Part shown: positions 2,038-56,047 of the stretch, piece by piece | Numbering within the stretch: the stretch's first letter is position 1 | How the letters are laid out: each line of letters opens with the position of its first letter | From: a virus | Taxonomy: Duplodnaviria > Caudoviricetes | Virus record (IMG/VR): IMGVR_UViG_3300035208_003581 | Location: 32,001-96,000 of that record | Reading direction: 5' to 3' (one strand) | Length of the DNA: 64,000 nucleotides | Notes under the pieces: model-generated | Told to the model about the DNA's origin: nothing | The model's input: the letters and a program-made list of their open reading frames with translations, nothing else | The model's database searches: none | Translations under genes and position numbers: made by a program

Positions 2038-2628
2038 ATGCCTTTAGTACCTACTGCATTACAAGGTTTAATGACACCACTTGCTAGTGCGGGTTCTATT
2101 GCAGGTATGTATTCTCCACAGTTGATTTTAGGTTTATCAAATGGTATAACAGCATATCTGCTTACACTCCAAGTGAAAACAACAGATGTTGGTACATTAG
2201 GAGTAGGTATAGGTACAGGTAAAGTTATTATTACACCTCCACAATTGGTAGGTCCATTAATGGGTGCAGCATCCTCAAATTCATTAACAGGAACATATGT
2301 AGCAGGATTAATGTCTGCTATAGGTACAGCAACTGCTTCATTTATTGTTAGTGCTGGTATGGTAACATCTCAACATCCAACAGTAGCTATAGGGTCTGGG
2401 ATAGGTCAATTTATCCCCACAGGTCCAAGTCCATTGCAGGGTCAACTCATGGGTATGCTTTCAGCATCAGGGTTTACAGGGCAATATTTAGTATCTTTAG
2501 CGACTGCAGTAGCACAAGGTATAACACAGGGATTAGGAACAGCACAGATTATACAAGTGATTACAGGTACACCTATAACTCCTCCACCATTACCTGGTTC
2601 TGGTGTTGGTATTGGGAAATTAATATGA
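2038..2628 (+). CDS. Gly/Ala-rich hydrophobic three-repeat protein, putative spike-tip protein
   Basis: ATG 2038 lies right after the spike stop; three ~65-aa repeats ending GxGxGxG[KQ]xI; almost no charged residues. Confidence 0.6.
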   Translation: MPLVPTALQGLMTPLASAGSIAGMYSPQLILGLSNGITAYLLTLQVKTTDVGTLGVGIGTGKVIITPPQLVGPLMGAASSNSLTGTYVAGLMSAIGTATASFIVSAGMVTSQHPTVAIGSGIGQFIPTGPSPLQGQLMGMLSASGFTGQYLVSLATAVAQGITQGLGTAQIIQVITGTPITPPPLPGSGVGIGKLI

Positions 2629-8600: not shown

Positions 8601-8954
8601 AGAAATCCTATTTTATCATATCGTAATGAGATCATACATATGCTATCTACAATAGATGAAGCATTATTATATGCAACTATAGGTTTAAATGTTGATTATG
8701 GTGATCCAACTAATATATATTTAAATGAACGTAATGTATATGTGGATGAATTTTTATTTAATTTATCTCTTCTTATAGAAGAGATTGAAAATGCAGTAAC
8801 ATATATTGATAAATTATATGATAAAAGATTTTCTTGGATTGATTTTAGAATAAATCTTGAAAAAGGGACATTGCCAAAAATTGAAAGACTTGTGTCTGAA
8901 AGAGATAAAAATATTTTAGAACTAGAGAAGAAAATACTTATGTTAAACTCTTAG
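2625..8954 (+). CDS. Very large virion structural (baseplate-associated) protein, 2109 aa
   Basis: Long ORF in tail operon; repeated beta modules (GDxLxIxxGxNxGxYxIxxV); poly-Pro linker near 6094-6122; helical C-terminus. Confidence 0.7.
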   Translation: MSSIKLNLDGWVLRKPRVASANAITTSSPDTVENPSFDPQERADYFVSCMNNSQLRDSEFAWSKSTSDRLRMGYSDVDQRWVPLPGISPINIGMIQNDPRIKVPYLPNINFNYRFFITDPSAQNLITCNLVTSFSNPVSLSSGVFEINTDTLEMNFSQDDVDIYEGENVYYQGHQFVDIKDPLRANIGLMSSTGYRLALSPIPEHGMHPIIRIGYQISLHTIEVDTESNFTSVSSGTVQWSLDKGTLNFNTSDIISNETSPVYYWGVYDYISTPGTSPLYNPQIGTVNLTGIVGTYPGSLPLNDSDLIIYFTNGVDYKQIEKTIEVDEHSTVVKYGTAQVRLDNGLVKCNVSEVRKYLGWQVYAVLGDFNLDGEDIKLRLFRSFVNKNGADETIFDVSCFVSINNVTFVEKLIASPILPIPISPIEPPISGYDSPSFTVSGEFDSILKDLKTYTGVGDGFIIDYHNRLLTLCERKSFNVTLNAVSPHYNFPDVGILEYDFQLNRIPESGPIQALTEDDYILDSNAGVVFFTDRKGKVLSQSTTGYVLSNDVLQDTKVNFTSVLIGKQLVILSGANKGSYIIESVLSTHQIQISSDIPFLSISKTSYEIWDNPEILCDRVWEETTVPEDLFKLYRESPLGLITNSPRLSVPIVDVNSRLSFMVNGNNITVEYVNDDTDFTSTIQGTAQISITTGNVNFSTDDILDNAGFTVYGFLWLYRSEYILNSSNGAIILNTPLSSGERLKVYYYLSEDESFINEYLPIKILGEQATFTVGSTIAHFNPDNKGTLSSRGALIWIGNKETDVGRYYRLNSVKTSDKVSINWDTNTIQVSTPFTSESEVIIEYHVMDSFGGEISFSLSSYPIFLPKFEIISGETAFEVYGEQTALYSPGKFILLDDSEIYKVSESISQTTSTIVVVTTPFKSNFSLSTLKITSEELQANYFEPIAYKFEQTILNSYEMVFKDSFQMKSGTVLDLDDDFYMVLRSFIDENGRTHVQVSSKFSREYTYSYGVLERSIRPVFTDFSSAFISDMSMYISQPVTLNIRKSNSLETLILGNDYTVSESGLVTLLTTVISGGDSVELNYTGRKFYPVSTNFTGKYIYRIIPSASNGYLGATLKATYTVYSPDTFYFRVEPFQTISNEVSVALGEIAVVGVPSSGPPSPPPPPPGLNEKGGESFYWNYGDLSDSDSVSRRYLLFYTDVVNAFEDFFKYFDGRVVGDVNGKFLFDGNLHSGNPVEPSVATNHIDSVIYTDPLWPVFPSPPFPSGFPFRRSKAMWKGSKYSRFYPERGVFFTMSSPSEEGGLTYAFPTEFQKEIAEIGREDLASVSNVKMRLARTRLLNIVNSGVSSATLEVESTLANSEELRFTNETFTTPSFEIGDQLSVSRPGYPLPLAIAQIVSKTDTSLVVLFLQLDIAPIIPTTPQALSVDLLPNDTVSHNVYWWVDNGDGDPISAIEYYRQGFDYIADLKEGKIINITFPIPIGQVPIDPETYIDGVLSFGNKLTTPYRFPALDGSVKNDQGDLSIPYLSPSSDVVDFNSIFSIENLNISSIENETIEGFKGDNGSISIDLRTFDLGKSPTGLNLYDTLYILTGSNSGKYLITSITGTSVGVSKFKHQQDNYDVLNPSFTWDVSYTVYDGVGPTVRYTSTDGQILSDLNTLKDTTVNFLTLGNEVQTGDTIVINSSSNYFNNGTYIVLSATSTELSIQCFNTAESNIDYVVEYGTARVNSTHGYFSVNNILSDTYSPDFSFVVKGDILVVTTGKNIGKYVVDTVYSTVFQVMISGSSRLLESDTATLTLSDSSLTTVSDYFQVSDVGRYILITDSVSYDGEYVISSVLSPNKVVLSGLIISSDESCNFSLECSYHIDNVRRGSSYVTSWKQTLLNEQSALQDINLQNKIQILFYTLYSETPNISGISGSVISTYIFKDIGKDYSTAESGDCLEITSGDNIGFYFIEEINGDEITIDTTGNEFVLIGESSLSYNLFKGNSRFSEDLRNPILSYRNEIIHMLSTIDEALLYATIGLNVDYGDPTNIYLNERNVYVDEFLFNLSLLIEEIENAVTYIDKLYDKRFSWIDFRINLEKGTLPKIERLVSERDKNILELEKKILMLNS

Positions 8955-27014: not shown

Positions 27015-30000
27015 ATGACAGAGTATAATTCACATTTAAATGATTTACTACATTTTGCTATAAACAATATGTTGAATAAAGTCCATATAACTTCAAAAGA
27101 TATGAACTCACAAAAGGTTAGAGGTGATAATTCTTTTGTTACTGGACTTGATAATGTGGGGAGTACAGGTTTAATAGATTTTTGGTACCCACTTGGATTT
27201 AGGAAACCATCAGCAACTGATCTATCTACAAATTTATTTAATTTCAATTCAAATACATCCACACCTAAATATGGTCGTATTGGTACTGTATTTGGAATTA
27301 CTGAAATAGCATATTCTGATAAGGATACTGCAAATAAGGGTGCATTATATCTTGCTCCATGTAGATTTATACATGACAGTGAAAACCTTCAAACTACAGG
27401 TGTGGTTGCAGGTGATATTTTATTTATTTTAGATACAAATACTTTTCATGTTATTGAATCTGTACTAGGGAGTGTTTTACAGTTTGCAGATGGGTCTTTT
27501 ACATTAACTGGTGATGTAAATGCATCTATTTTAAAATTAATACCTCAATCATTACTATCTATATCTGGACCAGATACTGAATTAGGTAAAGAACAAACAT
27601 TTATATTTTATGACCCAAATAGTCCTGTTGAAACTAACCCTGATTATTACAGATCTAATCTTAGTGAGTTAGATCAATATAGATTACGACCATTATTTCC
27701 AAATAGATCAAATATACGTATTGATGCTATTTTTAAGACTACTCTTGAGAATATGAATGAAGATTGGGATTTTCAATTAGTACTTTATCCCGATGATGGT
27801 ACTGGTAATCCTGACATAACAAAACCTATATTTGATAGACAAGTTATAATTGACACATCTTTACCAATAAGTGAGCAAGCACTTATTGTTGATTATATAC
27901 AAGGTGAAATAAGGTTAAGTGTCCCCTCAGTTGCTGGGGGGATGCTTAACCCTAATTCAGTTTCAGGACCATTAAAATTATGGGCGGCATTTGCCGTTAT
28001 TAGCAATGGTATTGTAAATAGTGTAAGTAAACTTCAAAGTTTACCACAAGTAACATCTGGTGATGGGCGTACTAATGTAGAATCGTATATTAAATATGAT
28101 TCAGATAAACAATTATGGTCTATACTTTCTGGTAAAGGTTATCAGAGTACAGTTCCAAGTGAGAAACCAAAACATGGATTTGGTATCACAGAATTCAGCT
28201 CAGATGAAGCAATTCCAGCATTTTATTTTGATGAAATTACAGAGTCTTGGAAAGTTGTATCACATGGTTCTGATACTGTTGATGTTGGTGCGGTTAATTT
28301 AGAATCAGCTGTTAAAGATGTAAATAATGGTAAAATTGGATTTTCATTTGTGGATGGTGAATCTGGTCTTCAATATAATAAAGATGAATTAAGATTATCT
28401 TCAAATATTACTCGTATAACTGGTTCTCAAAAAAAAGGTTCTGTATCAAACCAACAAAAGAATCATAATGGTATATTTTCAAATAACTCAAATATATCTA
28501 CAGATGGATCTGCACGTAAATATTCAAAAATTATAATTTCAGAAGAATATAATTATACATATACATTATCAGCATCAAACCATGTATTGGATTTAACGAT
28601 TGGTATTGATGAGGATATTAATTTAGATCTAGCTGGGTCTTATATTCCTGTAACTGGTGTTACATTAGGATATTTTGTATCTACGATACCACATGGATTT
28701 AAACCAGGCGATATGGTAGAGTTTGATAGTGCTATTATAGGATTAATGATCAATGCATTTTTTAGTTTCTACATTACAAATGGTTCTATTATTTCTGATA
28801 CTCAATTTAAACTTTCAGATACCTATGCAGATGCAATAGCTGGTACATCACATAATTTTTCAAATGTCGTTTCTAGTGTAAACATATTTAAAGCAGTTAA
28901 AAATTCATATGCTGGTAAATATGTTGCTGTAAAAGGCACTTCTAGTTCAATGTTTTCAAAAATAATTTCTAACACACATAATTCTTTATATACTGAAGAT
29001 GCTTGGACAAATTCAGAGGGAAATGGAACTATAGGACCTGGTATTGCTAATATTTATAATTGGTATTATGGTGTTAATAGAGAACAGTTAACATTATCTC
29101 AGTATATAGGTACTTCTACAGCTCCTTTTAATGGTGGTTTTTTTGATGGGGATAATATATGGCTATTCCCATATATTATGAATGGGGTAGATAATTTAAC
29201 ATTATTGAAAATAAATCAAATTTCTAAAAAAATAGATAGTTTTCCTTTACCTGTAGATATATATACATTTTCATCATGTGATACATGTGTATTTGATGGT
29301 TTATTTATTTGGATATATTCAACTCCATATTATTGTTATAAGTTTAATACAAAAACTTATGAGTATACAAGTTATACTACACCATATAATTCAACAGCAT
29401 TTAGATCAATATTTGATGGGGAAAATATTTGGTTGGATTGTGGATCTGATGGTATATATATTATAAATATACTAACAAATGAATATGAAAATATATCTAT
29501 AGTTGGTGGTTATAATTATATTTTATTTGATGGTGAGAGTATATGGTTAATACCATATACTTCTGATAACTTCTGTAAAATTTCAAAATCAACACATTCA
29601 GTAGAATATATACCTAATCCAATTTCAGGATCATGGTTGTTTTCTAGTGCTGTGTTTGATGGGGAACATATTTGGTGTATCCCTGATCAATCAACTTATT
29701 TTTTGAAAATTGATGTATCAACAAATTTGATGAAGGAAATACCACATATTTACACTGGTACAAATTTTTTCAGAGATTCTGCTTTTGATGGAGAACATAT
29801 TTGGTGTATTCCACATGACACAGATACTTTAGTATGTATTGATATTTCTGACGAGCACTTTTATGATTTCCCAGGGTTTTCTGGTGAACAATACAAAAAT
29901 ATCCTATGTGTGGATGGGAATTTATATGTATTTCCAAATGGTGATGGTACAAATCTAACAATTTTACATCCTTTAAATTTCCCTAAAAATATAATTAATT

Positions 30001-32078
30001 CTGAATCAATTACAACTAAAAAATTACAAATATCAGGTACACATGAAATCGAAGAACTCAGTACATTATCTACTATTTCTCAGAAGACATGCTTTCATAG
30101 TTTTGGAGATATTGGTGTAACTGTATCTGATGGTTATTTTAGAGTATATGATATTAAAAATCCATCATCTTTAACACTTCTAGGTTCGTATAATGTAGGT
30201 AGTTATACTTATGTTGATGTGTACACTAATGGTAAATATGCTATAGTATTGAAAGATGATACAATAGAATTGTTAAATATGAGAGTTCATACAAATATTT
30301 ATAATATGAGTACATATTATATTACTGGTGGTAGGGGTAAATTAGAGATTATTGATGGTGTTTTATTTGTATCCAGTACTACAGGTATTGTAATATTAAG
30401 TATAGAAAACACTGGTTGGTATGTTATTAATACCATAATAGGTTCTGAAGTATATGATTTTAAAATAAAAAATGACTTGTTAGTAGCGTCTACTTGGACT
30501 TCTCCAAGGGGTATTCATATTTATAATATATCAGATGTATTTAATGTGTATTCTATATATACTCCATCTGATATTGGTTTATATTGTTATGGTTTAGATA
30601 TTGTTGATAATTATGTATATCTAATTATTTCAAATTCCATTAGAATTTATGATATTACAATTTTAACTTCACCTGTTCTTTTACAGACTTTATCTCTGAG
30701 CAGTTTAGGATGTAATTTTGGTTCATCAACAAAATTGTTTATTGAAGGTGATTATTTATATTTATACAATACACATATTTACATATTTAATATTTCAAAT
30801 AGAGCATTTCCTGTATTAGAAACATTTTATGATATTTCAAGTACATTTTTATATAAAAATAATCAATATGTATATTCTATTTCTGGAGATAATATTTATA
30901 CTTATAAAATAGATACCATGAAACTTGGTAATGCACATACATCTTCGTTATTATCTAAAAATATTTATACTTCTAGATTAGAAGTGTCAACTAATTTAGA
31001 AGCAAAATCTATAAACGTTTCAGATGGTATTGTAAGTAATGGACGTATTTCTGCTTGGGGAAATATACGTTCTAATGATTTAATATCAGATAAATACTCA
31101 AACCTCAGTATGCTTTCTGTGATGAATTGGTCATCACTTAGTTTTACAGGATTTCCAACTAACCTAACTAGTATAGCATATGCAGATGATACTTCTACAC
31201 GAGAAAATGGACCTATTTGTTTGGTAGTTGGCGGTGCAGATATTTGGGAATCTTTTGATGGTAACTACTTTTCTATTAATATAAATAAAACTTTGGATGA
31301 TGTTACTCATAAAGTAGTATATGGTGATGGTAAATATGTTATAACGGCCACTGATGGTGGTAATGATTTTCCTATTAGTGTTACAGACGATGGTGTTAAT
31401 TTTACAGATTCATCTTCAATCTATAATCAACAAGGCCTCGCACATAATGGTCTATCAGGAGTTAATTCAATTTGGGTTTTAGTATGTGCAACAGGTGTAT
31501 TTTCTCAAAATGTTATCTATACCTCCCAAGATGCTACGAGTTGGACATCAAGATTGACTAGTGCTAGTATATCGTTTAATTCGGTTGCATTTGGGAAAAA
31601 TAGTTCTTGGCAAGATCTTTGGGTAGCAGTAGGGTATGAAGAGATATGGTATTCATCCGATAGTATAACTTGGTATGCAGCATCTTCAGTACCTTCTAAA
31701 CAGATATTATCTGTAGTATGGTCACAAGGTCGTTGGATTGCTGTATGCTCCAATAATACTATTCTCACATCTCCAGATGGGGATATATGGACAGCAATTG
31801 AAAATGTTTTTCCTTGGGCAAATTTTGACTTAGGTGGTAGCGGTGATGATTTAATAGATATTAAAACAGATGGTAATAATACTTTTGTTATTGTTGGTAA
31901 TAATGGGGTTATTGGAATATCCATATATCAAAATATATGGAAAAGAGCAGATTGTGTATACCCTAACATAAGTACAGTTCCAAATATTGTTGCATTAGAT
32001 TATGATCCTAATAGACGAACATTCATTGCTGTTACTGATAGTGGTTTTTTAGTAAAGAATTTATGTTCTTATATATAA
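27015..32078 (+). CDS. Multi-propeller tail fibre/receptor-binding protein, paralog B1
   Basis: Seven FDGxxIW-type repeats, then LVIVD-like repeats, then BNR-like SxDxxxW repeats; N-terminus shared with 32093..34198. Confidence 0.7.
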   Translation: MTEYNSHLNDLLHFAINNMLNKVHITSKDMNSQKVRGDNSFVTGLDNVGSTGLIDFWYPLGFRKPSATDLSTNLFNFNSNTSTPKYGRIGTVFGITEIAYSDKDTANKGALYLAPCRFIHDSENLQTTGVVAGDILFILDTNTFHVIESVLGSVLQFADGSFTLTGDVNASILKLIPQSLLSISGPDTELGKEQTFIFYDPNSPVETNPDYYRSNLSELDQYRLRPLFPNRSNIRIDAIFKTTLENMNEDWDFQLVLYPDDGTGNPDITKPIFDRQVIIDTSLPISEQALIVDYIQGEIRLSVPSVAGGMLNPNSVSGPLKLWAAFAVISNGIVNSVSKLQSLPQVTSGDGRTNVESYIKYDSDKQLWSILSGKGYQSTVPSEKPKHGFGITEFSSDEAIPAFYFDEITESWKVVSHGSDTVDVGAVNLESAVKDVNNGKIGFSFVDGESGLQYNKDELRLSSNITRITGSQKKGSVSNQQKNHNGIFSNNSNISTDGSARKYSKIIISEEYNYTYTLSASNHVLDLTIGIDEDINLDLAGSYIPVTGVTLGYFVSTIPHGFKPGDMVEFDSAIIGLMINAFFSFYITNGSIISDTQFKLSDTYADAIAGTSHNFSNVVSSVNIFKAVKNSYAGKYVAVKGTSSSMFSKIISNTHNSLYTEDAWTNSEGNGTIGPGIANIYNWYYGVNREQLTLSQYIGTSTAPFNGGFFDGDNIWLFPYIMNGVDNLTLLKINQISKKIDSFPLPVDIYTFSSCDTCVFDGLFIWIYSTPYYCYKFNTKTYEYTSYTTPYNSTAFRSIFDGENIWLDCGSDGIYIINILTNEYENISIVGGYNYILFDGESIWLIPYTSDNFCKISKSTHSVEYIPNPISGSWLFSSAVFDGEHIWCIPDQSTYFLKIDVSTNLMKEIPHIYTGTNFFRDSAFDGEHIWCIPHDTDTLVCIDISDEHFYDFPGFSGEQYKNILCVDGNLYVFPNGDGTNLTILHPLNFPKNIINSESITTKKLQISGTHEIEELSTLSTISQKTCFHSFGDIGVTVSDGYFRVYDIKNPSSLTLLGSYNVGSYTYVDVYTNGKYAIVLKDDTIELLNMRVHTNIYNMSTYYITGGRGKLEIIDGVLFVSSTTGIVILSIENTGWYVINTIIGSEVYDFKIKNDLLVASTWTSPRGIHIYNISDVFNVYSIYTPSDIGLYCYGLDIVDNYVYLIISNSIRIYDITILTSPVLLQTLSLSSLGCNFGSSTKLFIEGDYLYLYNTHIYIFNISNRAFPVLETFYDISSTFLYKNNQYVYSISGDNIYTYKIDTMKLGNAHTSSLLSKNIYTSRLEVSTNLEAKSINVSDGIVSNGRISAWGNIRSNDLISDKYSNLSMLSVMNWSSLSFTGFPTNLTSIAYADDTSTRENGPICLVVGGADIWESFDGNYFSININKTLDDVTHKVVYGDGKYVITATDGGNDFPISVTDDGVNFTDSSSIYNQQGLAHNGLSGVNSIWVLVCATGVFSQNVIYTSQDATSWTSRLTSASISFNSVAFGKNSSWQDLWVAVGYEEIWYSSDSITWYAASSVPSKQILSVVWSQGRWIAVCSNNTILTSPDGDIWTAIENVFPWANFDLGGSGDDLIDIKTDGNNTFVIVGNNGVIGISIYQNIWKRADCVYPNISTVPNIVALDYDPNRRTFIAVTDSGFLVKNLCSYI

Positions 32079-35141: not shown

Positions 35142-38100
35142 ATGTCTGATAATTTTGGTAATGGTGTGAGCCGTACTTTAAATAGTAAAGATCATCAATT
35201 TTCAAATGTGGTATGGCAAAAAGGTAAACCACCTCTTGACAGTGAATTTAGTCTTATCACTCAAATGATTCAGGAGATTCAGCATAAATTTTCTGAAGCT
35301 CATTATCCAAGTGGTTGGATGGGTGACCCTTTAATGTGTATAGAAGATTATGTGACAAATAAGTCTTGGTCTAACTATTTTAAGTTTGGTTATCAATACA
35401 GTGGTGAAAAACGTGGTTTTCCAATTGCAACAGTAAATGGTTGGGTAATTCCTGTTACTGCTACTCGTGTAGGTAATCCTCCCACTGCTCCAAATGATAC
35501 AGAATATTCAAATCGTGTTGAACTAGATCCACCTCCATCATCAGCAGGTGATAATAGAATTGATTTTGTATTTTTAGAAGTGTGGAAAGCTCAGTTATCA
35601 CCTGGTGGTACTATTTCAAAACCTACTGCAAGTAGTATATATAACTTTGGTAATATAGAATTTGGTGGTACTAATTTATCTGATGATATAAAAGACCCAG
35701 CAATAGGATTTGAGACATCAGAACGTGTTCAAATTCAATACTGTATTCGTGTAGTGTCTGGTATTTCACTCACCAATGTGAATAATGGATTTGATCCTTC
35801 AACAGTCTTTGCTCGTGGTACAGCATCCAGTAATACAACTTTTACATACACAAATATGTATTCCGAACTTGGAGATGCTGGTTTATGGCGTGCTGGTGAT
35901 GGAGATTATGCTAATTCTCTTGGTGCCGTTGATGGGTATTCTTATGCGATACCAATTTGTTCTGTATTTCGTAGAAATAGTGTTGGTTATAACCCTACAT
36001 CGAATCAAAATGGTGGTGTAAATAGGAATAACTTAGCTCAAACTCGTGATGATGCTACAGAGTTTGTTAATATTCCTACATTATTAAATGAATTATCTTT
36101 AAATGCAACTACTCTCACACTTTCTAATATTACCAGTACAGGTATACCAACTTATTCAAATTATATTAGAATTGATGATGAAATAATGACTTATTCTGGT
36201 GTGCAGGGTAACAATCTTATAAATTTAATACGAGAGAGTGATCCACCTCTTTCTGTATCTACTTATGGATCAAAATCTCAAACACATAGTGCTGGTACTC
36301 AAATTAATTTATTACCTATACGTCCAGATGGTTTATTTTCTGATGAAATAACTCGTGACGATATTTTGGATATGCGCCATATTGTTTCTCTTGGTAACAT
36401 TGATTATCATTCATTATTAATCAGTAATTTAACTAATTTACTGCATGGAGAATTGAAAACTACCTGGAAACGTAGTGGGGCTGCTGGTATTCGTGGAGTA
36501 AAATTGCTCTATGTTGATCAAATAACAAGTGTATCACCAGCAATTGGTGTTACCCAATTGGATGCACCTGATAATCATCGTATATTATTTTCTGATGCTG
36601 CTATACTTCAACCTGGTAATTTATGTATTATGTTTCCTCCATCGTCAGTAGGGGATGAATATTCGTCTCGTTCTACATTTGATTTAAATCCATCAACATG
36701 TTTTGCTACATTACATGCAACAAGTGGTGGTAGTGTTTGGTCTGGGGGCACAGGTGATGATTCTTTACGTATTCCAATCTCACCATTTAAAACTGGTTTT
36801 TTGACAGGTCATTCTGATTCTGTTCGTTTTGTGTTACCTACAGAGGTATCTGATTCAGTTGTAATTTATGTAGATGGTGATACTACAAAGTATACTGCTG
36901 ATGGAGGGTATTTTACGGTAACAGGTAGTGTAAACGGTGCTTCTACTGATCCATCTGATGATTTAATCATTACATTGGATCATTCAACATTTCCAAATGT
37001 TTCTTCAAATATTTATATTTTCTTTGCATTACAATATTCACCTGGGCGTGGTTTAAGTCGTAAACCAGATGATGTTTATAACATTAGGTTTACATCTACA
37101 CCAAGTGATACATTAGCAAGATATCATGATACACTTCATATTGAACCTATACATTTATGGGGTAAAGTTAATCCAAATGGATATCGTGGTGAATCTGTAA
37201 AAAATAGTGAGGCATATATTGATTTAGGATCAAAAACACTAGTAGTGTGCCCTTATCGTAAATTAACATTACCTAGAATAAAAATTAAAAATGGTGCTGC
37301 ATTAAATGGTGGTTTAGGCCTTATGCCTATTGGATCTGCACCTAAAGATGTAATTGATCCACTTGGTCTTTTTGAAAATCATAGTCAAGATGATTTATAT
37401 GTGGAAATTCAAAAAGAATGGTTAAGTATGCCTACATTAGGTGATGTATACACTCCAATTGTTCATACAACTGATGGATCAAATTTTTCTCAAGGTATTA
37501 ATTTCTTTTTAAAACATACTATTGGTTTACATGCTGATTTAGGTAATTATGAAAAAAACTATGTGAATACTTCTTTAGCGACTTCACAACAATTTTTTAC
37601 AACAGTTACTGATGTTGGTGTTCCTGCTGCGTATAACAGATCTGTTGTAATTACAGGTGATTCTAGGGTAGCTTCTGGAATTCGTTTATATAACTCAAAT
37701 GGTCGTCAAGGATTAGAATTACCACCATTTTATGGTGTATCTCGTTTATGGGCTGTATATGAAGCCAGTGATTTCATAGATAATCATGGGAGTTTTAATT
37801 CGTCTGATCGTACTGAAATAACAGGTAATGCTATTAACTTATTACGTCCAGATTTTGATGGTCCAACATTATTCATTATAGAAGATGATGATGGTGATGC
37901 TACATTTGTTTTAAATGCAGAAGCTATTGACCTGAATCGTCTAAGTTCACCTCCATCAGATTTTCTTAGTGGTGAATATGTGGTTGAAGCTTCTGTATTT
38001 GGTTTTGATCGTGGGTTTTTAAGTGATAATGCACGTATTGTACTATCGAGAGTACGAGATGAAGGTGTTGCAGCAGGAGATGATATTGATGCTCCTCAAT

Positions 38101-39173
38101 TTATAGTTCCAGCACCACTTGCATCAAATACTTATGTGTCAGTTGAATATGCACGTACACCATACCAGGGGGATGTTGGTGGGACACAAGAAGGTACTTT
38201 GGATGTGTCTTATAAATCTGGTTCATTAACAAGTCAGGAAATACGAGATTTAATAGATAATCCATTAGATTATGATAATTTAGATTTAGCATATCAAAAA
38301 TCTTTTGAAGTTTTAGCTTCAACAAATTTTATCACTTCTAATGGTAGTGGGTCACTTTCATTTCCAATATCTTTTTTCGATGGTCAAATAAAGGTAGGTT
38401 CAGAAGATACTGCCTATTGGCCACCTATCAATGGAAGTGTTGATAATCCAGTTGTACATGCTTCTGTAATGGACTCTAATAATTATGATTTAATGAAACC
38501 CTCAGAAAGTAATGTGATATCTAATTTGCCTTTAGGTTCATTTTTCAGAGAGAAAGACTTTAACGGTCAGCTCATTGAATCCTCACATGGGAAGGTTAAT
38601 TTAGCTATTCTAAATAATTATTTTAATTCTCATAAATTATTTATGGAATTACCAAGGTCTTCTGAGTATTTACATTCATCTCAGAATATATTTGGTAAAG
38701 AATATACATCATTAAATGGTGCGGGTTCATGGATTACATTAGTGGATGGCGTGACAGATAATTTGTTAGATACGTCTGGATTTAGAACATCACATGGTGG
38801 ATCTGCATATATATCAAGTAGACCAATTCCAGGAGGTCCAATAGATAGTTATCTTGGTACATTTACATTTGATAGCGACTTCACATCTTCATTTGTTGTT
38901 GGTAAAGCATTATTAGTACGTAATAATAAAGAAGTATATGCAAATGAAACTTCGTCTGGGGACGAGTTACAGCTTGTTATTATCACACAAGCATACAAAC
39001 CAGTTGGGTTATCTGGGACTTCTGGGGAGATATCTATAGCTATATCACCTACAGGTACAGGTGAAGGATATTCAGCAGCAGATAGATTTAAACTCTCAGG
39101 TAACCCATTGATTAAGAATCATTCAAGGTATCAACCAGATACAAGTACTATCACATTAGCAAAGAGGATTTAG
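35142..39173 (+). CDS. Tail-fibre/baseplate-associated protein, paralog A2
   Basis: VVWQKGKPPLDSE; shares motifs with 21800..24352. Confidence 0.65.
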   Translation: MSDNFGNGVSRTLNSKDHQFSNVVWQKGKPPLDSEFSLITQMIQEIQHKFSEAHYPSGWMGDPLMCIEDYVTNKSWSNYFKFGYQYSGEKRGFPIATVNGWVIPVTATRVGNPPTAPNDTEYSNRVELDPPPSSAGDNRIDFVFLEVWKAQLSPGGTISKPTASSIYNFGNIEFGGTNLSDDIKDPAIGFETSERVQIQYCIRVVSGISLTNVNNGFDPSTVFARGTASSNTTFTYTNMYSELGDAGLWRAGDGDYANSLGAVDGYSYAIPICSVFRRNSVGYNPTSNQNGGVNRNNLAQTRDDATEFVNIPTLLNELSLNATTLTLSNITSTGIPTYSNYIRIDDEIMTYSGVQGNNLINLIRESDPPLSVSTYGSKSQTHSAGTQINLLPIRPDGLFSDEITRDDILDMRHIVSLGNIDYHSLLISNLTNLLHGELKTTWKRSGAAGIRGVKLLYVDQITSVSPAIGVTQLDAPDNHRILFSDAAILQPGNLCIMFPPSSVGDEYSSRSTFDLNPSTCFATLHATSGGSVWSGGTGDDSLRIPISPFKTGFLTGHSDSVRFVLPTEVSDSVVIYVDGDTTKYTADGGYFTVTGSVNGASTDPSDDLIITLDHSTFPNVSSNIYIFFALQYSPGRGLSRKPDDVYNIRFTSTPSDTLARYHDTLHIEPIHLWGKVNPNGYRGESVKNSEAYIDLGSKTLVVCPYRKLTLPRIKIKNGAALNGGLGLMPIGSAPKDVIDPLGLFENHSQDDLYVEIQKEWLSMPTLGDVYTPIVHTTDGSNFSQGINFFLKHTIGLHADLGNYEKNYVNTSLATSQQFFTTVTDVGVPAAYNRSVVITGDSRVASGIRLYNSNGRQGLELPPFYGVSRLWAVYEASDFIDNHGSFNSSDRTEITGNAINLLRPDFDGPTLFIIEDDDGDATFVLNAEAIDLNRLSSPPSDFLSGEYVVEASVFGFDRGFLSDNARIVLSRVRDEGVAAGDDIDAPQFIVPAPLASNTYVSVEYARTPYQGDVGGTQEGTLDVSYKSGSLTSQEIRDLIDNPLDYDNLDLAYQKSFEVLASTNFITSNGSGSLSFPISFFDGQIKVGSEDTAYWPPINGSVDNPVVHASVMDSNNYDLMKPSESNVISNLPLGSFFREKDFNGQLIESSHGKVNLAILNNYFNSHKLFMELPRSSEYLHSSQNIFGKEYTSLNGAGSWITLVDGVTDNLLDTSGFRTSHGGSAYISSRPIPGGPIDSYLGTFTFDSDFTSSFVVGKALLVRNNKEVYANETSSGDELQLVIITQAYKPVGLSGTSGEISIAISPTGTGEGYSAADRFKLSGNPLIKNHSRYQPDTSTITLAKRI

Positions 39174-49268: not shown

Positions 49269-49322
49269 GGATAGTAACAGATAGTGTGTTGATAACCTAT
49301 TAATACTTTCTATTAATAGGAG
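49269..49322 (+). repeat. 54-bp direct repeat, copy 1 (hairpin plus SD-like end)
   Basis: ggatagtaacagatagtgtgttgataacctattaatactttctattaataggag, identical to 51290-51343. Confidence 0.97.
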
Positions 49323-49444
49323 GTGAGAAGATGTTATAAATGGAGCGAGAAACATATTATGTTTCTCATTGGGAGATACACCCTATGTTAGAAATAACAT
49401 AGCTAATGTTAATATTTATTAACAGAAATGTATCGGAGAATACA

Positions 49445-50062: not shown

Positions 50063-50493
50063 AGGTGAATAAAGTAAAAAAAATTTGGAATCCTAAATTT
50101 AAGTCTATAGTTGATTTTTTGAATACCTATGTTGAACCAGATTCATTGATTTCTATTACTAACATTAAAGAAAAAGATAATTATGTACATGAACTTTTGA
50201 AGAATGATTATATGTTGGCATATTTGAAAAATCATATTTGGTTTTTTTACACTTTTGATATTATAACAACACATATAATCGAAAGAGCATCTGAAGAAAA
50301 TATTGAAATTTATCTTGAATCTATTGGTAAATCTTGGTCTTTTGCATATAAATATATTACAAAAGAACGCTTACTGAATTTATTGTGTACGTATAATGTA
50401 ACTGATTTAATGATTTCTGATATGTATTTATATATAAATACTACTATAAATATTGATATTAAACCATCAATTTTAATGAATAATTTCAATTAG
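50059..50493 (+). CDS. Hypothetical protein
   Basis: ATGA overlap with the HAD gene stop. Confidence 0.55.
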   Translation: MKVNKVKKIWNPKFKSIVDFLNTYVEPDSLISITNIKEKDNYVHELLKNDYMLAYLKNHIWFFYTFDIITTHIIERASEENIEIYLESIGKSWSFAYKYITKERLLNLLCTYNVTDLMISDMYLYINTTINIDIKPSILMNNFN

Positions 50494-50495
50494 AA

Positions 50496-51086
50496 TTATT
50501 CATCCCAATTCATAGAGCTTTGTATTTTATAATCAAATGGATTTGCTCTATTGCCTATTGTAGTTGTTAAATAAGCTATTATTTTTAATGGGTTTTCTGA
50601 TATCTCATTTTCAAAATCTTCTAATGTATATTGTGATGGATAATCATGTTGTTTTTTTAGTTGTACTAAAATATCTTCTATATTTAATTCTATTTTTGTT
50701 TTAGACTTACCAACAGTTACAGAAGTAGATATTGAATTAAGAGTATCTTCTATAACATTTCTACCATCTATAGAAGCAATCCCATCTTCGTGTTCATAAA
50801 ATATACCATTTCTATAGAAGTCATCTACTTCACCTATTAGGTGGTCCATTAAATCCTTTGTATTTATTGTTATTGAAAAGCTTTTATCAGCTTGTACATT
50901 TTTAATTGTGCTTCTTATAGTGTCATCTTTATTTGATATATACCCAGATAAAAGGGAATAAATTTCTGTTTCAAGTGCATGAGGGTCTATTTGAAGAGTG
51001 TCAGCTAAAGCATGAATGTCCTCATCTTTAGGATTTGGATGTGTTATGAAGTAACGTTTTATTTGATCTTGTACTGATTCACTCAT
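50496..51086 (-). CDS. Hypothetical protein with small N-terminal three-helix domain
   Basis: Likely start MSESVQDQ at 51086 after AAGGA; the upstream extension in the track is low-complexity AT. Confidence 0.65.
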   Translation of the reverse strand: MSESVQDQIKRYFITHPNPKDEDIHALADTLQIDPHALETEIYSLLSGYISNKDDTIRSTIKNVQADKSFSITINTKDLMDHLIGEVDDFYRNGIFYEHEDGIASIDGRNVIEDTLNSISTSVTVGKSKTKIELNIEDILVQLKKQHDYPSQYTLEDFENEISENPLKIIAYLTTTIGNRANPFDYKIQSSMNWDE

Positions 51087-51289
51087 TTTAATTTCCTTTA
51101 TAATTATCATTGTTATTGTCATAATGTTTATATTTATAAAAAAAATATTTAGAATTTGAAATTTTTTCTGTATACTCAAATGAAACAAAGAGGAGTTATA
51201 TAATGTTTCCATCAAATAATCTTTTAAAAGAATACATTGAATCATTAGAAAATATCTCTATTTATGGACACAGAGTTCAAATTATTAGA

Positions 51290-51343
51290 GGATAGTAACA
51301 GATAGTGTGTTGATAACCTATTAATACTTTCTATTAATAGGAG
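51290..51343 (+). repeat. 54-bp direct repeat, copy 2
   Basis: Identical to 49269-49322; ends at the probable IS left junction. Confidence 0.97.
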
Positions 51344-51413
51344 TTCGGATAGGTTACCATAATTATTAACAACTATGGTTAATTTCTACTAATAATTAAC
51401 AATAAGGTAAGTT

Positions 51414-51992
51414 ATGACGAAATACGTAAACACAAGAACTGCTTGTAAAAATTTAAATGTACATCCTAATACTCTACGAAATTGGGATCGGGACGGCAAG
51501 GTAAGAACGATGCGTACGCCCGGCGGGCGTCGGCTTTATGATTTATCATCCTTATCCCAATCTAATCGTAGTAAAATTATATACGCAAGAGTTTCTTCAA
51601 AAGGACAGAGCAATGATCTTGACTCACAAATACAGTATCTTAGAACAAGATATCCAAACCATGAGCTTATCCAAGATATCGGATCTGGTCTCAACTTCAA
51701 ACGCAAAGGGCTTACAGCCCTTCTGGAACGATTGCTGTCTGGAGATGTCGAAGAGGTTGTTATTGCACACCGCGACCGGCTCTGCCGGTTCGGATTTGAA
51801 TTATTCCTTACCATTGCAGAGAAATTTAATACCAAAATCGTGGTTCTCGACGATGCACAGCAGTCACCACACGACGAACTCGTCGCCGATTTGCTCTCAA
51901 TTGTCCACGTTTTCTCCTGTAGGCTTTACGGACTCAGAAAATATTCTAAGAAAATCAAAGAAGATAAGGATTTATCCGAACAAAAACAGTAA
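51414..51992 (+). CDS. tnpA: IS607 TnpA serine recombinase
   Basis: N-terminal HTH (VHPNTLRNWD...RTPGGRRLY), YARVSS, DIGSGLNFKRKGL, RDRLCRFG, FSCRLYGLR. Confidence 0.95.
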   Translation: MTKYVNTRTACKNLNVHPNTLRNWDRDGKVRTMRTPGGRRLYDLSSLSQSNRSKIIYARVSSKGQSNDLDSQIQYLRTRYPNHELIQDIGSGLNFKRKGLTALLERLLSGDVEEVVIAHRDRLCRFGFELFLTIAEKFNTKIVVLDDAQQSPHDELVADLLSIVHVFSCRLYGLRKYSKKIKEDKDLSEQKQ

Positions 51993-53043
51993 AGAATTAT
52001 TTAATAAATACCTGGGGTTATCTCGTTATTGGTATAATAAAGGTGTAGAGTATTTGAAAATTCCAAACACTAAGGCGTATATGCCTGAAGTAAGAAAGAT
52101 TCAATATAATCAACAACATGAGCCGTGGGCTCTTGATTGCCCTCAGCGAATTAGAGAACATGCTTTGTCATTAGCGTGTCAAGCAGTTAAGAATGCTAAA
52201 AAGAAATTTGCAATAACTAAATCATTTCAGATGGTTAGCTTTAAAAAGAAAAAAGATGTCCGTCAATCCTTTGGATTTGACCGTCAAAGTTTAGGAGGCG
52301 ACTATGTATTCAAGCAGCTGAAATATAAAGTTAATTTTTATTCTACTGAGAAATTTGATTCTGAATTAGAAGGAACAAGAATAATTAGAGAAAACCACAG
52401 GTGGTTTTTAATAGTTCCAGCTACAACACTTATAAAAATTCCCGATAACCAAAGGAATAATATAGTTGCTTTAGATCCTGGAATCAAAACTTTTGTTACT
52501 TTTTATTCTGAATTTAATCATGGTAAGATTGGGAGTGCTGATTTTAATAGAATATTTAGACTTTGCTTGTGTTTGGATAAATTAATTTCTAAAATATCCA
52601 AAGCAAAGTGTAAAGCTAAGCGCCGCATGCGGCGGGCCGCTTCAAGATTACGTTGGAAGATTAAAGACTTAATTAATGAATTACACCACCAAACAGCTAA
52701 CTTTTTAGTTAAAAATTTTAATGTAATTCTTCTTCCAACATTTGAAACGCAGCAGATGTCTTCAAAATTAAATAGTAAATCAGCAAGGAACATGTTAAGT
52801 TTTGCACATTTCAGGTTTAAACAATTTTTAAAGTTTAAAGCGAAAGAATATAACTGTAAAGTACTTGATGTATGCGAAGCTTATACTTCCAAGACGTGTT
52901 CTTACTGCGGTGAAATGCAGGAAATTGGAAGTAAATCTATTTTAAAATGCACTAATTGTGGTGTAAAAGTAGATCGAGATTTAAACGGCGCTCGTAATAT
53001 TTATTTACGAGCCTTGGCGGTTACGCCCTTTGGGCTCAATTAA
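51538..53043 (+). CDS. tnpB: TnpB RNA-guided nuclease with Fanzor-type rearranged RuvC (start uncertain)
   Basis: KIRIYP, ALDPGIKTF, ILLPTF, VCEAYTSKTCSYCG, CTNCG, DRDLNGARNI. Confidence 0.92.
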   Translation: MIYHPYPNLIVVKLYTQEFLQKDRAMILTHKYSILEQDIQTMSLSKISDLVSTSNAKGLQPFWNDCCLEMSKRLLLHTATGSAGSDLNYSLPLQRNLIPKSWFSTMHSSHHTTNSSPICSQLSTFSPVGFTDSENILRKSKKIRIYPNKNSKELFNKYLGLSRYWYNKGVEYLKIPNTKAYMPEVRKIQYNQQHEPWALDCPQRIREHALSLACQAVKNAKKKFAITKSFQMVSFKKKKDVRQSFGFDRQSLGGDYVFKQLKYKVNFYSTEKFDSELEGTRIIRENHRWFLIVPATTLIKIPDNQRNNIVALDPGIKTFVTFYSEFNHGKIGSADFNRIFRLCLCLDKLISKISKAKCKAKRRMRRAASRLRWKIKDLINELHHQTANFLVKNFNVILLPTFETQQMSSKLNSKSARNMLSFAHFRFKQFLKFKAKEYNCKVLDVCEAYTSKTCSYCGEMQEIGSKSILKCTNCGVKVDRDLNGARNIYLRALAVTPFGLN

Positions 53044-53107
53044 GAGTTCAATGCATTTGTTAACAATTGTTAGCAGAAAAGTAGCAGATTTCTGATATTT
53101 GTGTATC
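52930..53107 (+). ncRNA. Putative omegaRNA (scaffold plus flank-derived guide); 5' end unknown
   Basis: Expected position at the tnpB 3' end/right end; stems gctcgtaa/ttacgagc (52990-53012), gagcc/ggctc (53009-53037) and ggcg/cgcc. Confidence 0.55.
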
Positions 53108-53750
53108 AGATGACATTTCTCGTTTACTTCCATCTGAAATGATGAAGTTGGTGAATCCGAAATTAAAACTTTTATTCTATAAAGATTTTTATGAAAAATC
53201 TTTATTATCATATGAACTGAAAGGTATGGAAAAAGAGGGTAAAGGTCCAATAATTATTGCTGTTGATAACTCTGGTTCCATGTCAGGGAATAGAGAAATA
53301 TGGTCTAAGGCTATTGCACTTACTCTTCTTGACATTGCTATTAAACAAAAACGTAACTTTGTTCTATACCATTTTAATACTCGTGTGACTTTTACATATG
53401 AAAAAATAAAAAATGACTCTGTAGATATTGAAAATTTATTTTCAGCTATGGAACACTTTTCAAGTGGTGGAACTTCATTTAAACAAGTTCTTGATTCTGC
53501 TTTAAATAAAATGGAACAGGATGAATTTAAAAAAGCAGATGTTATTTTAATCACAGATGGTGAAGCAGATGATCATGATGCAAAGATGTATAAAGAAAAA
53601 GCACATAGGTTAAAAACTACAACATACGGTATTGTAATTGGTAATAAAGATTCTGCACGTCAATGTGTTGAGAAATTCTGTGATTCCACATATACATTAA
53701 ACGATCTAACTCAAGATTCAACTATTACTTCAAATATATTTTCTATTTAA
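53088..53750 (+). pseudogene. 5'-truncated ViaA/CoxE-like VWA-domain gene
   Basis: ISDICVSDDISRLLPSE in frame before ATG 53139; KGPIIIAVDNSGSM (MIDAS), GGTSF, LITDG; in-frame TAG at 53082 lies inside the IS end. Confidence 0.75.
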
Positions 53751-54124: not shown

Positions 54125-56047
54125 ATGAAATCGTCTTTTTATGCAGTATTGATTGCTATCAGTCTAATCGGTTGTGGTCAAAATGTAGTGACCTCTGAAC
54201 CAAATACAGAGTCATGTACTATCCAAGGTACAGTTATGATATGCCCAGATGGGACATCTTATGACATGGCTCAAACAAATCCAGTTTGTACGATCAAGCA
54301 TATTAGCACACAAGTAGCTATTGTGTGTGACGATGGTACAAGAATAAATGTATATGACGGTGCTGATGGTCAAGACGGTTCATCATGTACAGTATTGGAT
54401 AATCTAAACGGTACTTATACAGCATCATGTACCGATGGTACTTCAATTACTTTTGAAGATGGTCAAAAAGGTGATGATGGTAATTCATGTTCGGTATATT
54501 CTACTCCTGCTGATAATACAATGACCATTACTTGTACTGATGGTACTGCTATTACCTTTTATAATGGTAAAGATGGTCAGGATGGTGTTGATGGTCAGGA
54601 TGGTCAGGATGGTCAGGATGGTCAGGATGGTGTTTCTTGTACAATTAATAATAACTTTGATGGTACACATACCATGGCATGTACTAATGGCACTTCTATT
54701 TTGTTACATGATGGTGCTGATGGTCAGGATGGTTCTGATGGTCAGGACGGTGATTCTTGTACTGTTCATGATAATTTGAATGATACGTATACGATTTCAT
54801 GTACTGATGGTACATCAGTCACTTTTAGTAATGGAGCCGATGGAACCAATGGTACGAATGGTACTAATGGGACAGATGGTGTAGACGGAACAAATGGTAC
54901 AAATGGTACAAATGGTACATCTTGTACAGTTCACGATAATTTAAATGATACCTACACAATTTCTTGTACTGATGGTACGAGTGTGACAGTACATGATGGT
55001 GAAGATGGTGTTAATGGAACTAATGGAACAAACGGTACTAATGGGACAAACGGTACTAATGGAACTGATGGAACCAATGGGACTGACGGGACAGATGGTT
55101 ATACTTCATTAATCCGCACTGATTCAACCACAGACTGTTATTATGGTGGTGATTTAGTTCTATTCGGTATTGATACAGACCGTGATGGGTATTTAGATGA
55201 TGATGAAGTTCAAGATTCATATTTGAATTGTTTCACAGATGGTAGTCAGTATAAGGTATATTATGGTAATTTTACAGTATATGATTATTTAGACCTTATG
55301 TATATACGTGAGTATAATCGTATCGAAGGCACATTGACTATAACTAATACTGCAATTACAGTTATTGAACTACCTAAATTAGAGTATGTAAATGCAATTG
55401 CAATTTCAGGTAATTCAGTACTAACAACAATAAATTTCCCAGTATTAAAGCAAATAGGTGATATTGGTATCACAGGTATGGGTAGTATTGGTATTTTAAG
55501 TATTGATTTAAATCAAAATTTAACCAGTGTCCATTTTGATGCCTTAGAAGTTCTTGTTGGTTTTACAAGCAGAAGTGCTTGTAGTCATACTGAAGCAAAA
55601 ACACAGATACTTATTCAAAGAAATTTCCGTCTTGAAGAGATAGATACATTTCATAATGTTCAGCTTGGAAATATAAAAATTTGTATGAATGATAACCTTC
55701 AGGTAATAAATGGCTTTGAGAATGTTGGAGCTAGTATGGATATTAATGGTTCCGTATATGATTATCGTTTTTACTTAGATAATAATCCTGTACTAGTTGA
55801 TTTAATAACTTCATTTACAGATAAAGAATTAGAAACATTGGAGCTACTACGTAATGTATCATTAAGTTTTGAATCTGCTTCATTAGTTGGTGAAGCTCAC
55901 TTAGTGTCTTCTAAACTGAATGTTTGGAATGATTCTCCAGTATTAGCATATTCACGTTGTGATGCTTGCACCATAACACGGTCAGTAGACATTGTAAGTG
56001 CTTTCCAATCTCCTAGCGTAGCATCTTGTGATCAAGATTGTCCATAA
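54125..56047 (+). CDS. Lipoprotein with collagen-like repeats, Cys-pair repeats and LRR/receptor-L-like C-terminus
   Basis: Lipobox LIGC; (GQD)n and (GTN)n; SCTVxDNxxxTYTISCTDGT repeats; GIDTDRDGYLDDDEV; IxxNxxLxxIxFxxL repeats. Confidence 0.8.
   Translation: MKSSFYAVLIAISLIGCGQNVVTSEPNTESCTIQGTVMICPDGTSYDMAQTNPVCTIKHISTQVAIVCDDGTRINVYDGADGQDGSSCTVLDNLNGTYTASCTDGTSITFEDGQKGDDGNSCSVYSTPADNTMTITCTDGTAITFYNGKDGQDGVDGQDGQDGQDGQDGVSCTINNNFDGTHTMACTNGTSILLHDGADGQDGSDGQDGDSCTVHDNLNDTYTISCTDGTSVTFSNGADGTNGTNGTNGTDGVDGTNGTNGTNGTSCTVHDNLNDTYTISCTDGTSVTVHDGEDGVNGTNGTNGTNGTNGTNGTDGTNGTDGTDGYTSLIRTDSTTDCYYGGDLVLFGIDTDRDGYLDDDEVQDSYLNCFTDGSQYKVYYGNFTVYDYLDLMYIREYNRIEGTLTITNTAITVIELPKLEYVNAIAISGNSVLTTINFPVLKQIGDIGITGMGSIGILSIDLNQNLTSVHFDALEVLVGFTSRSACSHTEAKTQILIQRNFRLEEIDTFHNVQLGNIKICMNDNLQVINGFENVGASMDINGSVYDYRFYLDNNPVLVDLITSFTDKELETLELLRNVSLSFESASLVGEAHLVSSKLNVWNDSPVLAYSRCDACTITRSVDIVSAFQSPSVASCDQDCP

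Follow-up and report, generated by a model that had tools for sequence, protein, structure and literature searches.

The nuclease locus

Is the RNA-guided nuclease encoded at positions 51538-53043 of a 64,000-nt stretch of viral DNA (the window) a relative of the Fanzor proteins of eukaryotes or an ordinary TnpB, and is the insertion sequence that carries it intact? The window comprises bases 32001-96000 of a 123-kb contig, IMG/VR record IMGVR_UViG_3300035208_003581, which is estimated to be 27% complete. A first-pass annotation, made from the sequence and its open reading frames (ORFs), had read the locus as a phage-borne pro-Fanzor nuclease in an IS607 element, and every coordinate it gave matched the translation of 51538-53043. 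Our analysis makes it highly probable that positions 51340-53087 (~1.75 kb) are an intact IS607-family insertion sequence encoding a pro-Fanzor nuclease, an omegaRNA and the transposase TnpA (Table 1). The N-terminal domain of the nuclease is encoded over the transposase gene, an arrangement also found in its relatives.

The nuclease and its catalytic site

The product of the nuclease ORF matches NF040570 (guided_TnpB) with an E value of 1.2e-37, and Pfam detects the domains Cas12f1-like_TNB, OrfB_IS605 and HTH_OrfB within it. The first-pass annotation had proposed a D-P-G motif at RuvC-I, the replacement of the usual RuvC-II motif by ILLPTF, a Glu in VCEAYTSK ahead of the zinc finger and an intact RuvC-III motif, DRDLNGARNI; translation bears out all four. 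The RuvC-I Asp codon does begin at 52474, and the D-P-G is invariant in alignments of 16 and of 59 sequences. The ILLPTF sequence (aa 397-402, from nt 52726) places Pro400 where the canonical motif I-x-x-E-D-L-x-x-x-x-M has its Glu, and at this site a canonical TnpB encoded by the same phage reads FEDL. The Glu of VCEAYTSK, at 52876, is Glu447; it lies six residues ahead of the C4 zinc finger and is invariant in both alignments. The DRDLNGARNI motif begins at aa 479 (nt 52972), and here the earlier reading is refined: position 479 is variable among relatives and D481 is invariant in both alignments, which identifies D481, and not D479, as the predicted RuvC-III catalytic residue. By alignment to D324/E467/D501 of the mimivirus Fanzor2 protein ApmFz2, the predicted catalytic triad is D313/E447/D481. 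Yoon et al. (2023, PMC10711439) described pro-Fanzor proteins by the pattern DPG-x(120,160)-E-x6-CxxC-x(12,18)-CxxC-x(4,8)-D, and the window protein conforms to it exactly, with spacings of 131, 6, 13 and 4 residues and no Glu at the canonical site.

The same residues bear on an alternative in which the protein is an ordinary canonical TnpB, the relocated Glu is there by chance, and Glu403, in PTFETQQM, acts as the RuvC-II acid. Glu403 is only three residues past the canonical position and is common in relatives, where the consensus is xFET; however, it is E447, and not position 403, that is invariant in the 16- and 59-sequence alignments, and E447 aligns to ApmFz2 E467, which is catalytic by mutation (PMC10530073) and by structure (PMC11832414). 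The phylogeny described below also separates the window protein from canonical TnpBs with 99% support, and we attach very little probability to this alternative.

Relatives and phylogenetic placement

Structure searches associate the protein with Fanzor2. With the single sequence as query, the best match in the PDB is ApmFz2 (mimivirus L79, 9b0l; E = 3.2e-26), and ISDra2 TnpB is matched at ~5e-9; with a family profile the 9b0l match reaches E = 3.3e-43 and the alignment extends into the N-terminal domain of that protein. An AlphaFold2 model of the 476-aa form (predicted local distance difference test score, pLDDT, 80) has its best PDB fold match in 9b0l (E = 5.4e-23), followed by ISDra2 TnpB (6.8e-17). 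In a viral structure library the top 20 matches are all giant-virus proteins, with known phage TnpBs ranking far lower. The reading of the protein as a member of the Fanzor-related IS607 lineage is upheld: the published pattern is matched, the transposase is an IS607 TnpA, and the closest solved relative is a Fanzor2.

The family is large, with 1,227 clusters at 50% identity (E < 1e-30) and close homologues at up to 55-64% identity to the window protein. Relatives are encoded in 196 IMG/VR stretches and in at least 497 stretches of prokaryotic genomes, with hosts in the Cyanobacteria, Poribacteria, Verrucomicrobiota, Chlamydiota, Desulfobacterales, Myxococcota, Bacteroidota, Clostridia, Synergistota and Planctomycetota and in Methanothrix. 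The lineage is far wider than reported: it takes in an archaeon, dozens of phage contigs and bacteria of many phyla, and with so broad a distribution the case for an origin specifically in cyanobacteria is weaker. The published pattern missed most of the close relatives, and indeed most of the lineage, because the second zinc knuckle is CxC or the cysteines are lost; a miss by the pattern is not evidence that such a relative lacks the relocated Glu. The CxC form, in place of the second CxxC, is found in the closest relatives of the window protein, and in many cyanobacterial and Poribacteria relatives all of the zinc-finger cysteines are gone (…EAYTSKTVSWTGE…) with the relocated Glu retained.

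Two trees were built, both leaving out ORFs shorter than 430 aa and near-duplicates: a FastTree phylogeny of 117 rows, with the phage's own canonical TnpB as root, and an IQ-TREE phylogeny (LG+G4) of 64 hand-picked rows that included seven canonical TnpBs from the same phage, cyanobacteria and Poribacteria. The two agree in placing the window protein in the lineage with the DPG motif and alternative Glu. In the 64-row tree the seven canonical TnpBs are split from the 57 DPG/alternative-Glu sequences at 99% support (Shimodaira-Hasegawa-like approximate likelihood ratio test, SH-aLRT), and clustering with canonical TnpB, the outcome that would have told against the first-pass annotation, was not seen. 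The window protein falls in a clade of ten members with 100% support, made up of itself, four IMG/VR contigs and five metagenome-assembled genomes (MAGs), which are assigned to Luteolibacter, Parachlamydia, Desulfobacterales, Myxococcota and a Pseudomonadota bacterium. The cyanobacterial sequences form a clade separate from this one. The canonical TnpB of the same phage used as outgroup (G000:C1:109997-110632, minus strand, outside the window) has just 25% identity to the pro-Fanzor and carries the canonical motifs D-S-G, LVFEDL, CxxC…CxxC and DHADRNGAINI.

When rooted on canonical TnpB, the giant-virus Fanzor2 proteins form a basal grade and the prokaryotic and phage sequences a nested clade (98% support). 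This order is the reverse of the published direction of transfer, but long-branch attraction and compositional bias are likely and make it unsafe, and no direction of transfer is drawn from it. The suggestion of the first-pass annotation that large phages act as a vehicle for the lineage is weakly supported by the trees: phage and bacterial copies interleave, but the clade of the window protein is not closer to the giant-virus Fanzor2 proteins than the cyanobacterial clade is.

The N-terminal domain and its overlap with tnpA

The nuclease ORF opens within tnpA and runs through the rest of that gene in its +1 frame, and some 130 codons at the start of the nuclease overlie the transposase gene. 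Few stop codons interrupt this frame in relatives: the last 420 nt of 41 distinct tnpA genes contain 4 stops in the +1 frame, vs 182 expected from codon shuffles, and the final 360 nt contain none; for the +2 frame of the same 420 nt the count is 434 vs 476 expected. The +1-frame overlap is present in 57 of 57 further prokaryotic loci, with a median length of 533 nt, and in all related IMG/VR loci that have a full-length tnpA. Overprinted loci occur in phages and bacteria as well as in an archaeon and in MAGs of giant viruses.

The decisive evidence that the overlapping frame is used comes from the codons of tnpA. Within the dual-coding stretch the nuclease has a Ser-Trp-Phe motif (S101-W102-F103, 51838-51846) that is invariant among aligned relatives, and 97 distinct tnpA genes were compared codon by codon at the corresponding site, which aligns to K-I-V-V-L. 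Opposite S-W-F, the tnpA codons are NTC in 96 of the 97 genes, next NTG in 94 and next GTT in 92; GTG was chosen 75 times at the second codon, though it makes up just 14% of the Val codons in those genes. The synonymous codons fixed in tnpA are exactly those that preserve Ser-Trp-Phe in the other frame. Such a choice of codons implies that the N-terminal domain is translated, and that the start codon therefore lies upstream of 51838; on this evidence the domain is under clear selection. A start at M106 (51853), the last ATG before the TnpB core, was considered and rejected because the invariant, selected S-W-F would be lost. Of the two remaining ATGs, that at 51613, which is preceded by AAGGA 7 nt upstream and would give a protein of 476 aa, is likely the best start candidate, with ATG 51538 as the alternative. 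Many relatives have an ATG at the place matching 51613 or ~120 nt upstream of it.

The start codon also bears on a different account of the overlap, by which it would serve the production of a TnpA-TnpB fusion through a programmed +1 ribosomal frameshift, the nuclease having no independent start. Such a fusion would fit a nuclease frame that is always +1 to tnpA and a family in which no single start codon is common to all members. It fits poorly with the ATG at 51613 and its upstream AAGGA, with the ATGs at or near this place in many relatives, and with ApmFz2, a 520-aa protein that is active on its own (PMC10530073, PMC11832414); nor was a conserved slippery or shift site seen. We regard a frameshifted fusion as decidedly improbable and favour an independently started nuclease with an overprinted N-terminal domain.

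The family profile aligns the dual-coded stretch to residues 78-130 of the ApmFz2 N-terminal domain, in which RuvC-R (N82, S83) contacts the pseudoknot of the omegaRNA and a thumb clasps the DNA (PMC11832414). By this homology, prokaryotic and phage copies probably already have the N-terminal domain that has been called unique to Fanzor2. Its overlap with tnpA is not mentioned in the Fanzor literature as searched. On balance we lean slightly towards the view that the arrangement is lineage-wide, and that in phages, bacteria, archaea and giant viruses alike the +1 frame of tnpA encodes a functional N-terminal domain of RuvC-R and thumb. If this is true, the overprinting physically locks the nuclease and transposase genes together, and the "Fanzor2-unique" domain would be older than the move to eukaryotes. 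The overprinting also bears on the annotation of these genes, on their cloning, for which the correct start codon is needed, and on the engineering of compact editors.

The transposase and the ends of the element

The TnpA protein matches NF033518 with a score of 185.8 bits (cut-off 110; E = 5.7e-55) over model positions 2-187 of 187, and has a MerR-type helix-turn-helix followed by a resolvase catalytic domain with the sequence YARVSS. This match, in a gene directly upstream of and overlapping that of the nuclease, substantiates the assignment to IS607, and with TnpA near-complete to the model and the tnpB frame open from 51538 both genes are uninterrupted, as had been claimed. The element is intergenic in the phage genome, with a gene for a VWA-domain protein (53139-53750) just downstream. 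A second contig encodes a protein identical to the window nuclease, and among 50,697 phage records blastn found no match to the element.

Among ten clade members, family conservation on the left side starts only at GGAG (51340-51343); next come GTTACC and a pair of direct TAAT(T/A)ATTAACAA repeats (51360-51372 and 51390-51402). These repeats are probable binding sites of TnpA. The left end has a direct repeat (D12) and inverted repeats (I9 and I16) that pair with the right end, and TTAACAA repeats at the left end have an inverted copy at the right, which is the layout of IS607 elements. The right end lies at 53087 (…GTAGCAG) and finishes in CAG, and the left junction reads TAGGAG; from these sequences an AG crossover core at both junctions is possible, and the GGAG may be, or may contain, the target-adjacent motif (TAM).

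A 54-nt sequence that resembles a promoter (TTGATA…TATTAAT, with the last letters TAGGAG) ends at this GGAG and has a second copy in the window (Table 1). At both sites an IS607-type left end or a mini-element starts right where the repeat ends. The repeat is either the left flank of the element, contributing a TAM-like GGAG or a shared target, or the outer part of the left end itself.

The predicted omegaRNA and additional scaffolds

The noncoding block after the tnpB stop codon, GCATTTGTTAACAATTGTTAGCAGAAAAGTAGCAG, is conserved in the ten clade members, and conservation ceases abruptly at 53087. In an RNAalifold analysis of eight relatives five helices were predicted, including a long-range helix in which the terminal GCAG (53084-53087) pairs with a CTGC among the codons of the zinc finger (52905-52908). 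On the named structure 93% of cells are paired, vs 38-57% in slid controls; 12 pairs are compensatory, and the observed covariation was reached in 0 of 500 shuffles. The window sequence alone has a fold z-score of -4.8. These results predict a structured guide RNA at the 3' end of the gene that reaches the right end of the transposon, as in OMEGA systems.

Sequences resembling the right end and omegaRNA occur at four places on one strand of the phage contig. The three extra scaffolds (49344-49436 of the window, and G000:C1:5195-5259 and G000:C1:120965-121032 of the contig) read …GTTAAT/C…TTAA/GC.GAAA.GTATCGG, and in each the GTATCGG end is at most 12 nt from a start codon. Their terminal hairpin shows compensatory changes relative to the autonomous element, and the copy of the 54-nt repeat at 49270-49323 precedes one mini-element. 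Such sequences could be either mini-IS607 derivatives or guide-RNA scaffolds standing alone, and the element may also work with the three of them, placed as they are just before phage genes.

The scaffolds raise the alternative of an immobile, domesticated element, in which the phage keeps the nuclease and the three extra scaffolds for its own use and not for transposition, possible uses being the cutting of competing DNA or an action on the genes that follow the scaffolds. Along with the scaffolds themselves, which lie on the same strand with their GTATCGG ends within 12 nt of start codons, this account draws on the presence of just one autonomous copy and on the position of the element behind a promoter-like sequence repeated elsewhere in the phage. 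It is at odds, however, with a tnpA that is full length and retains its catalytic motif, with family repeats retained at both ends, and with a complete nuclease triad, as published domesticated TnpBs are typically inactivated or without a transposase (PMC10691335). We consider domestication unlikely and retain the reading of an intact insertion sequence.

Table 1. Features of the IS607 element and its flanks, in window coordinates.
Feature	Position	Strand	Basis or remark
54-nt promoter-like sequence ending in GGAG	51290..51343	+	100% identical to 49270-49323
IS607 left end	51340..51413	+	Left-end alignment of 10 clade members; repeats pairing with right end
tnpA, IS607 serine recombinase, 192 aa	51414..51992	+	NF033518; Pfam Resolvase and MerR
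tnpB, pro-Fanzor nuclease open frame	51538..53043	+	501 codons; NF040570 and Pfam matches
Dual-coding stretch, nuclease N-terminal domain over tnpA	51538..51992	+	+1 frame of tnpA, 455 nt
RuvC-I, predicted catalytic Asp313 in D-P-G (aa 313-315)	52474..52476	+	Codon GAT; aligns to ApmFz2 D324
Pro400 at canonical TnpB RuvC-II Glu site	52735..52737	+	Translation; Gly in ApmFz2 alignment
Alternative RuvC-II Glu447 in VCEAYTSK (aa 445-452)	52876..52878	+	Codon GAA; aligns to ApmFz2 E467
C4 zinc finger (C454, C457, C471, C474)	52897..52959	+	CSYC (454-457), CTNC (471-474); Pfam PF07282
RuvC-III, predicted catalytic Asp481 in RDLNGARNI	52978..52980	+	Aligns to ApmFz2 D501
Predicted omegaRNA scaffold	52900..53087	+	5' end approximate; conserved block, RNAalifold, covariation
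Putative guide segment in flanking phage DNA	53088..53107	+	Conservation stops after 53087; analogy with TnpB and ApmFz2 omegaRNAs (PMC11832414)

The host replicon

The contig encodes a Baseplate_J/gp6-like wedge protein, a tail protein, a DnaB helicase, a family A DNA polymerase, an NAD-dependent ligase and a helicase, and its genes are densely packed on one strand. No capsid protein of the nucleocytoplasmic large DNA viruses (NCLDVs) was found on the contig by a search that gave five copies in a control giant-virus bin, and none was found in 43 other IMG/VR records with relatives of the nuclease, 8 of which are at least 90% complete. A search for Pfam Terminase_6N gave no match in the 123-kb fragment, a result that is uninformative because the contig is only ~27% complete. 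Judged by its gene content the contig is that of a large ("huge") tailed phage, in line with the claim that the nuclease is phage-borne, for which the Baseplate_J, DNA_pol_A and DnaB genes and the lack of an NCLDV capsid speak. The protein is therefore a pro-Fanzor, by definition, and not a Fanzor: it comes from a prokaryotic virus, and Fanzor2 denotes proteins from a eukaryote or a eukaryotic virus.

Some features of the contig might instead suggest a eukaryotic giant virus, in which case the protein would be a true Fanzor2. Its low GC content, its collagen-repeat protein and its NAD-dependent ligase are all features that mimiviruses have too, and the best structural matches among viral proteins are those of giant viruses. 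Such an origin is nonetheless exceedingly improbable given the baseplate wedge, family A polymerase and DnaB genes, the tight packing of genes on one strand, the lack of an NCLDV capsid in a search whose control bin gave five copies, and nearest relatives that are bacterial MAGs and viral contigs free of NCLDV capsids.

Just downstream of the VWA-domain gene, a lipoprotein-like ORF of 640 aa (54125-56047) contains surface repeats of the collagen-flanked type and triple-helix repeats of collagen (GxDGxDG, GTNGTNG). A number of very large ORFs elsewhere in the window, at 2625-8954, 27015-32078, 35142-39173 and others (2,109, 1,687 and 1,343 aa), had no PHROG or Pfam match; they are sited in an apparent tail/baseplate module.

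Proposed mode of action

A mode of action can be proposed by analogy with ISDra2, ISXfa1 and ApmFz2. TnpA would move the double-stranded element via recombination at a short core sequence. The omegaRNA would start in the zinc-finger codons of tnpB and read into the flank, from 53088 onward, so that its 3' end serves as guide. Once the empty site has been rejoined, the TnpB-omegaRNA complex would cut it beside a G-rich motif or TAM; repair from a sister copy would restore the element and favour its retention. What the analysis shows is family membership, the motifs, the integrity of the genes, covariation in the RNA and selection on the overlapping frame; cleavage directed by an RNA, the TAM, the position of the start codon and mobility at the present day are inferred. 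Nucleases with the relocated Glu are reported to be without collateral cleavage (Jiang et al. 2023, PMC10530073), and none would be expected of the window nuclease. Being compact, at ~476 aa, and having a defined candidate for its guide RNA, the nuclease is reasonably suited to testing.

Several observations weigh against an intact and active element. The left boundary has two placements, at GGAG 51340 or, if the 54-nt repeat belongs to the element, at ~51289, and no empty site was found in IMG/VR with the exact right-flank pattern and the downstream VWA protein as queries. The 123-kb contig contains a single autonomous copy. The N-terminal domain is modelled by AlphaFold2 with low confidence, and no start codon conserved family-wide was found among the relatives. 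An Rfam scan of 50400-53400 matched no family, so that the omegaRNA is defined only by covariation among eight relatives. Activity itself is deduced only from the intact genes, the intact ends and the covarying omegaRNA.

Comparison with known systems

Systems of this kind are already published, as pro-Fanzor or TnpB2 in 2023 (Yoon, Jiang, Altae-Tran) and with a Fanzor2 structure in 2024. The window element shares with the described pro-Fanzor/TnpB2 systems (PMC10711439, PMC10530073) the DPG motif, a Glu placed six residues ahead of the zinc finger, an upstream IS607 TnpA and a right-end omegaRNA, and the trees group its nuclease with cyanobacterial members and giant-virus Fanzor2 proteins. 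Unlike the described pro-Fanzors it is carried by a huge tailed phage, and unlike those of cyanobacteria it belongs to a clade that spans Verrucomicrobiota, Chlamydiota, Thermodesulfobacteriota, Myxococcota and Pseudomonadota. The cyanobacterial hosts given for pro-Fanzors by Yoon et al. (2023) describe a distribution and are no structural criterion. The window protein also retains the full CxxC…CxxC zinc finger, in contrast to many cyanobacterial and Poribacteria relatives.

The resemblance to ApmFz2 (L79, 9b0l; PMC11832414) extends to aligned triads, a C4 zinc finger, the IS607 context and an N-terminal S-W-F/Y motif where the RuvC-R residues N82-S83-W84 are found in ApmFz2. In the omegaRNA of ApmFz2 (PMC11832414) and in the one predicted here, the final bases (-4 to 0 in ApmFz2) pair with a segment ~180-190 nt upstream. 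The two proteins have only ~20-30% identity, however, and the one described here is carried by a prokaryotic phage, which by definition sets it apart from Fanzors; a nuclear localisation signal is not expected. Most of the predicted omegaRNA is encoded within the ORF and only 44 nt of it follow the stop codon, whereas that of ApmFz2 extends ~200 nt past its ORF. The TAM of ApmFz2 is GGG; the window element has a conserved GGAG at its left junction, as a candidate only.

With canonical TnpB (ISDra2, 8H1J/8EXA; ISXfa1) the protein shares the WED-REC-RuvC-ZnF architecture at ~19% identity (Foldseek E = 6.8e-17), and the element has the same components of transposase, nuclease and right-end guide RNA. 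The protein differs in having Pro for the RuvC-II Glu, DPG in place of D-hydrophobic-G, and an N-terminal extension of ~110 residues whose codons overlap tnpA. TnpB branches with a rearranged RuvC-II site were found by Altae-Tran et al. (2023, PMC10691335) to be specific to or enriched in viruses, and viruses and plasmids were proposed as their spreaders. To these descriptions the present analysis adds the broad spread of the lineage outside cyanobacteria and in phages, and evidence that prokaryotic copies have the "Fanzor2-unique" N-terminal domain too, overprinted on tnpA, together with a phage-borne, zinc-finger-intact member of the lineage that is thought to have seeded the Fanzor nucleases of eukaryotes.

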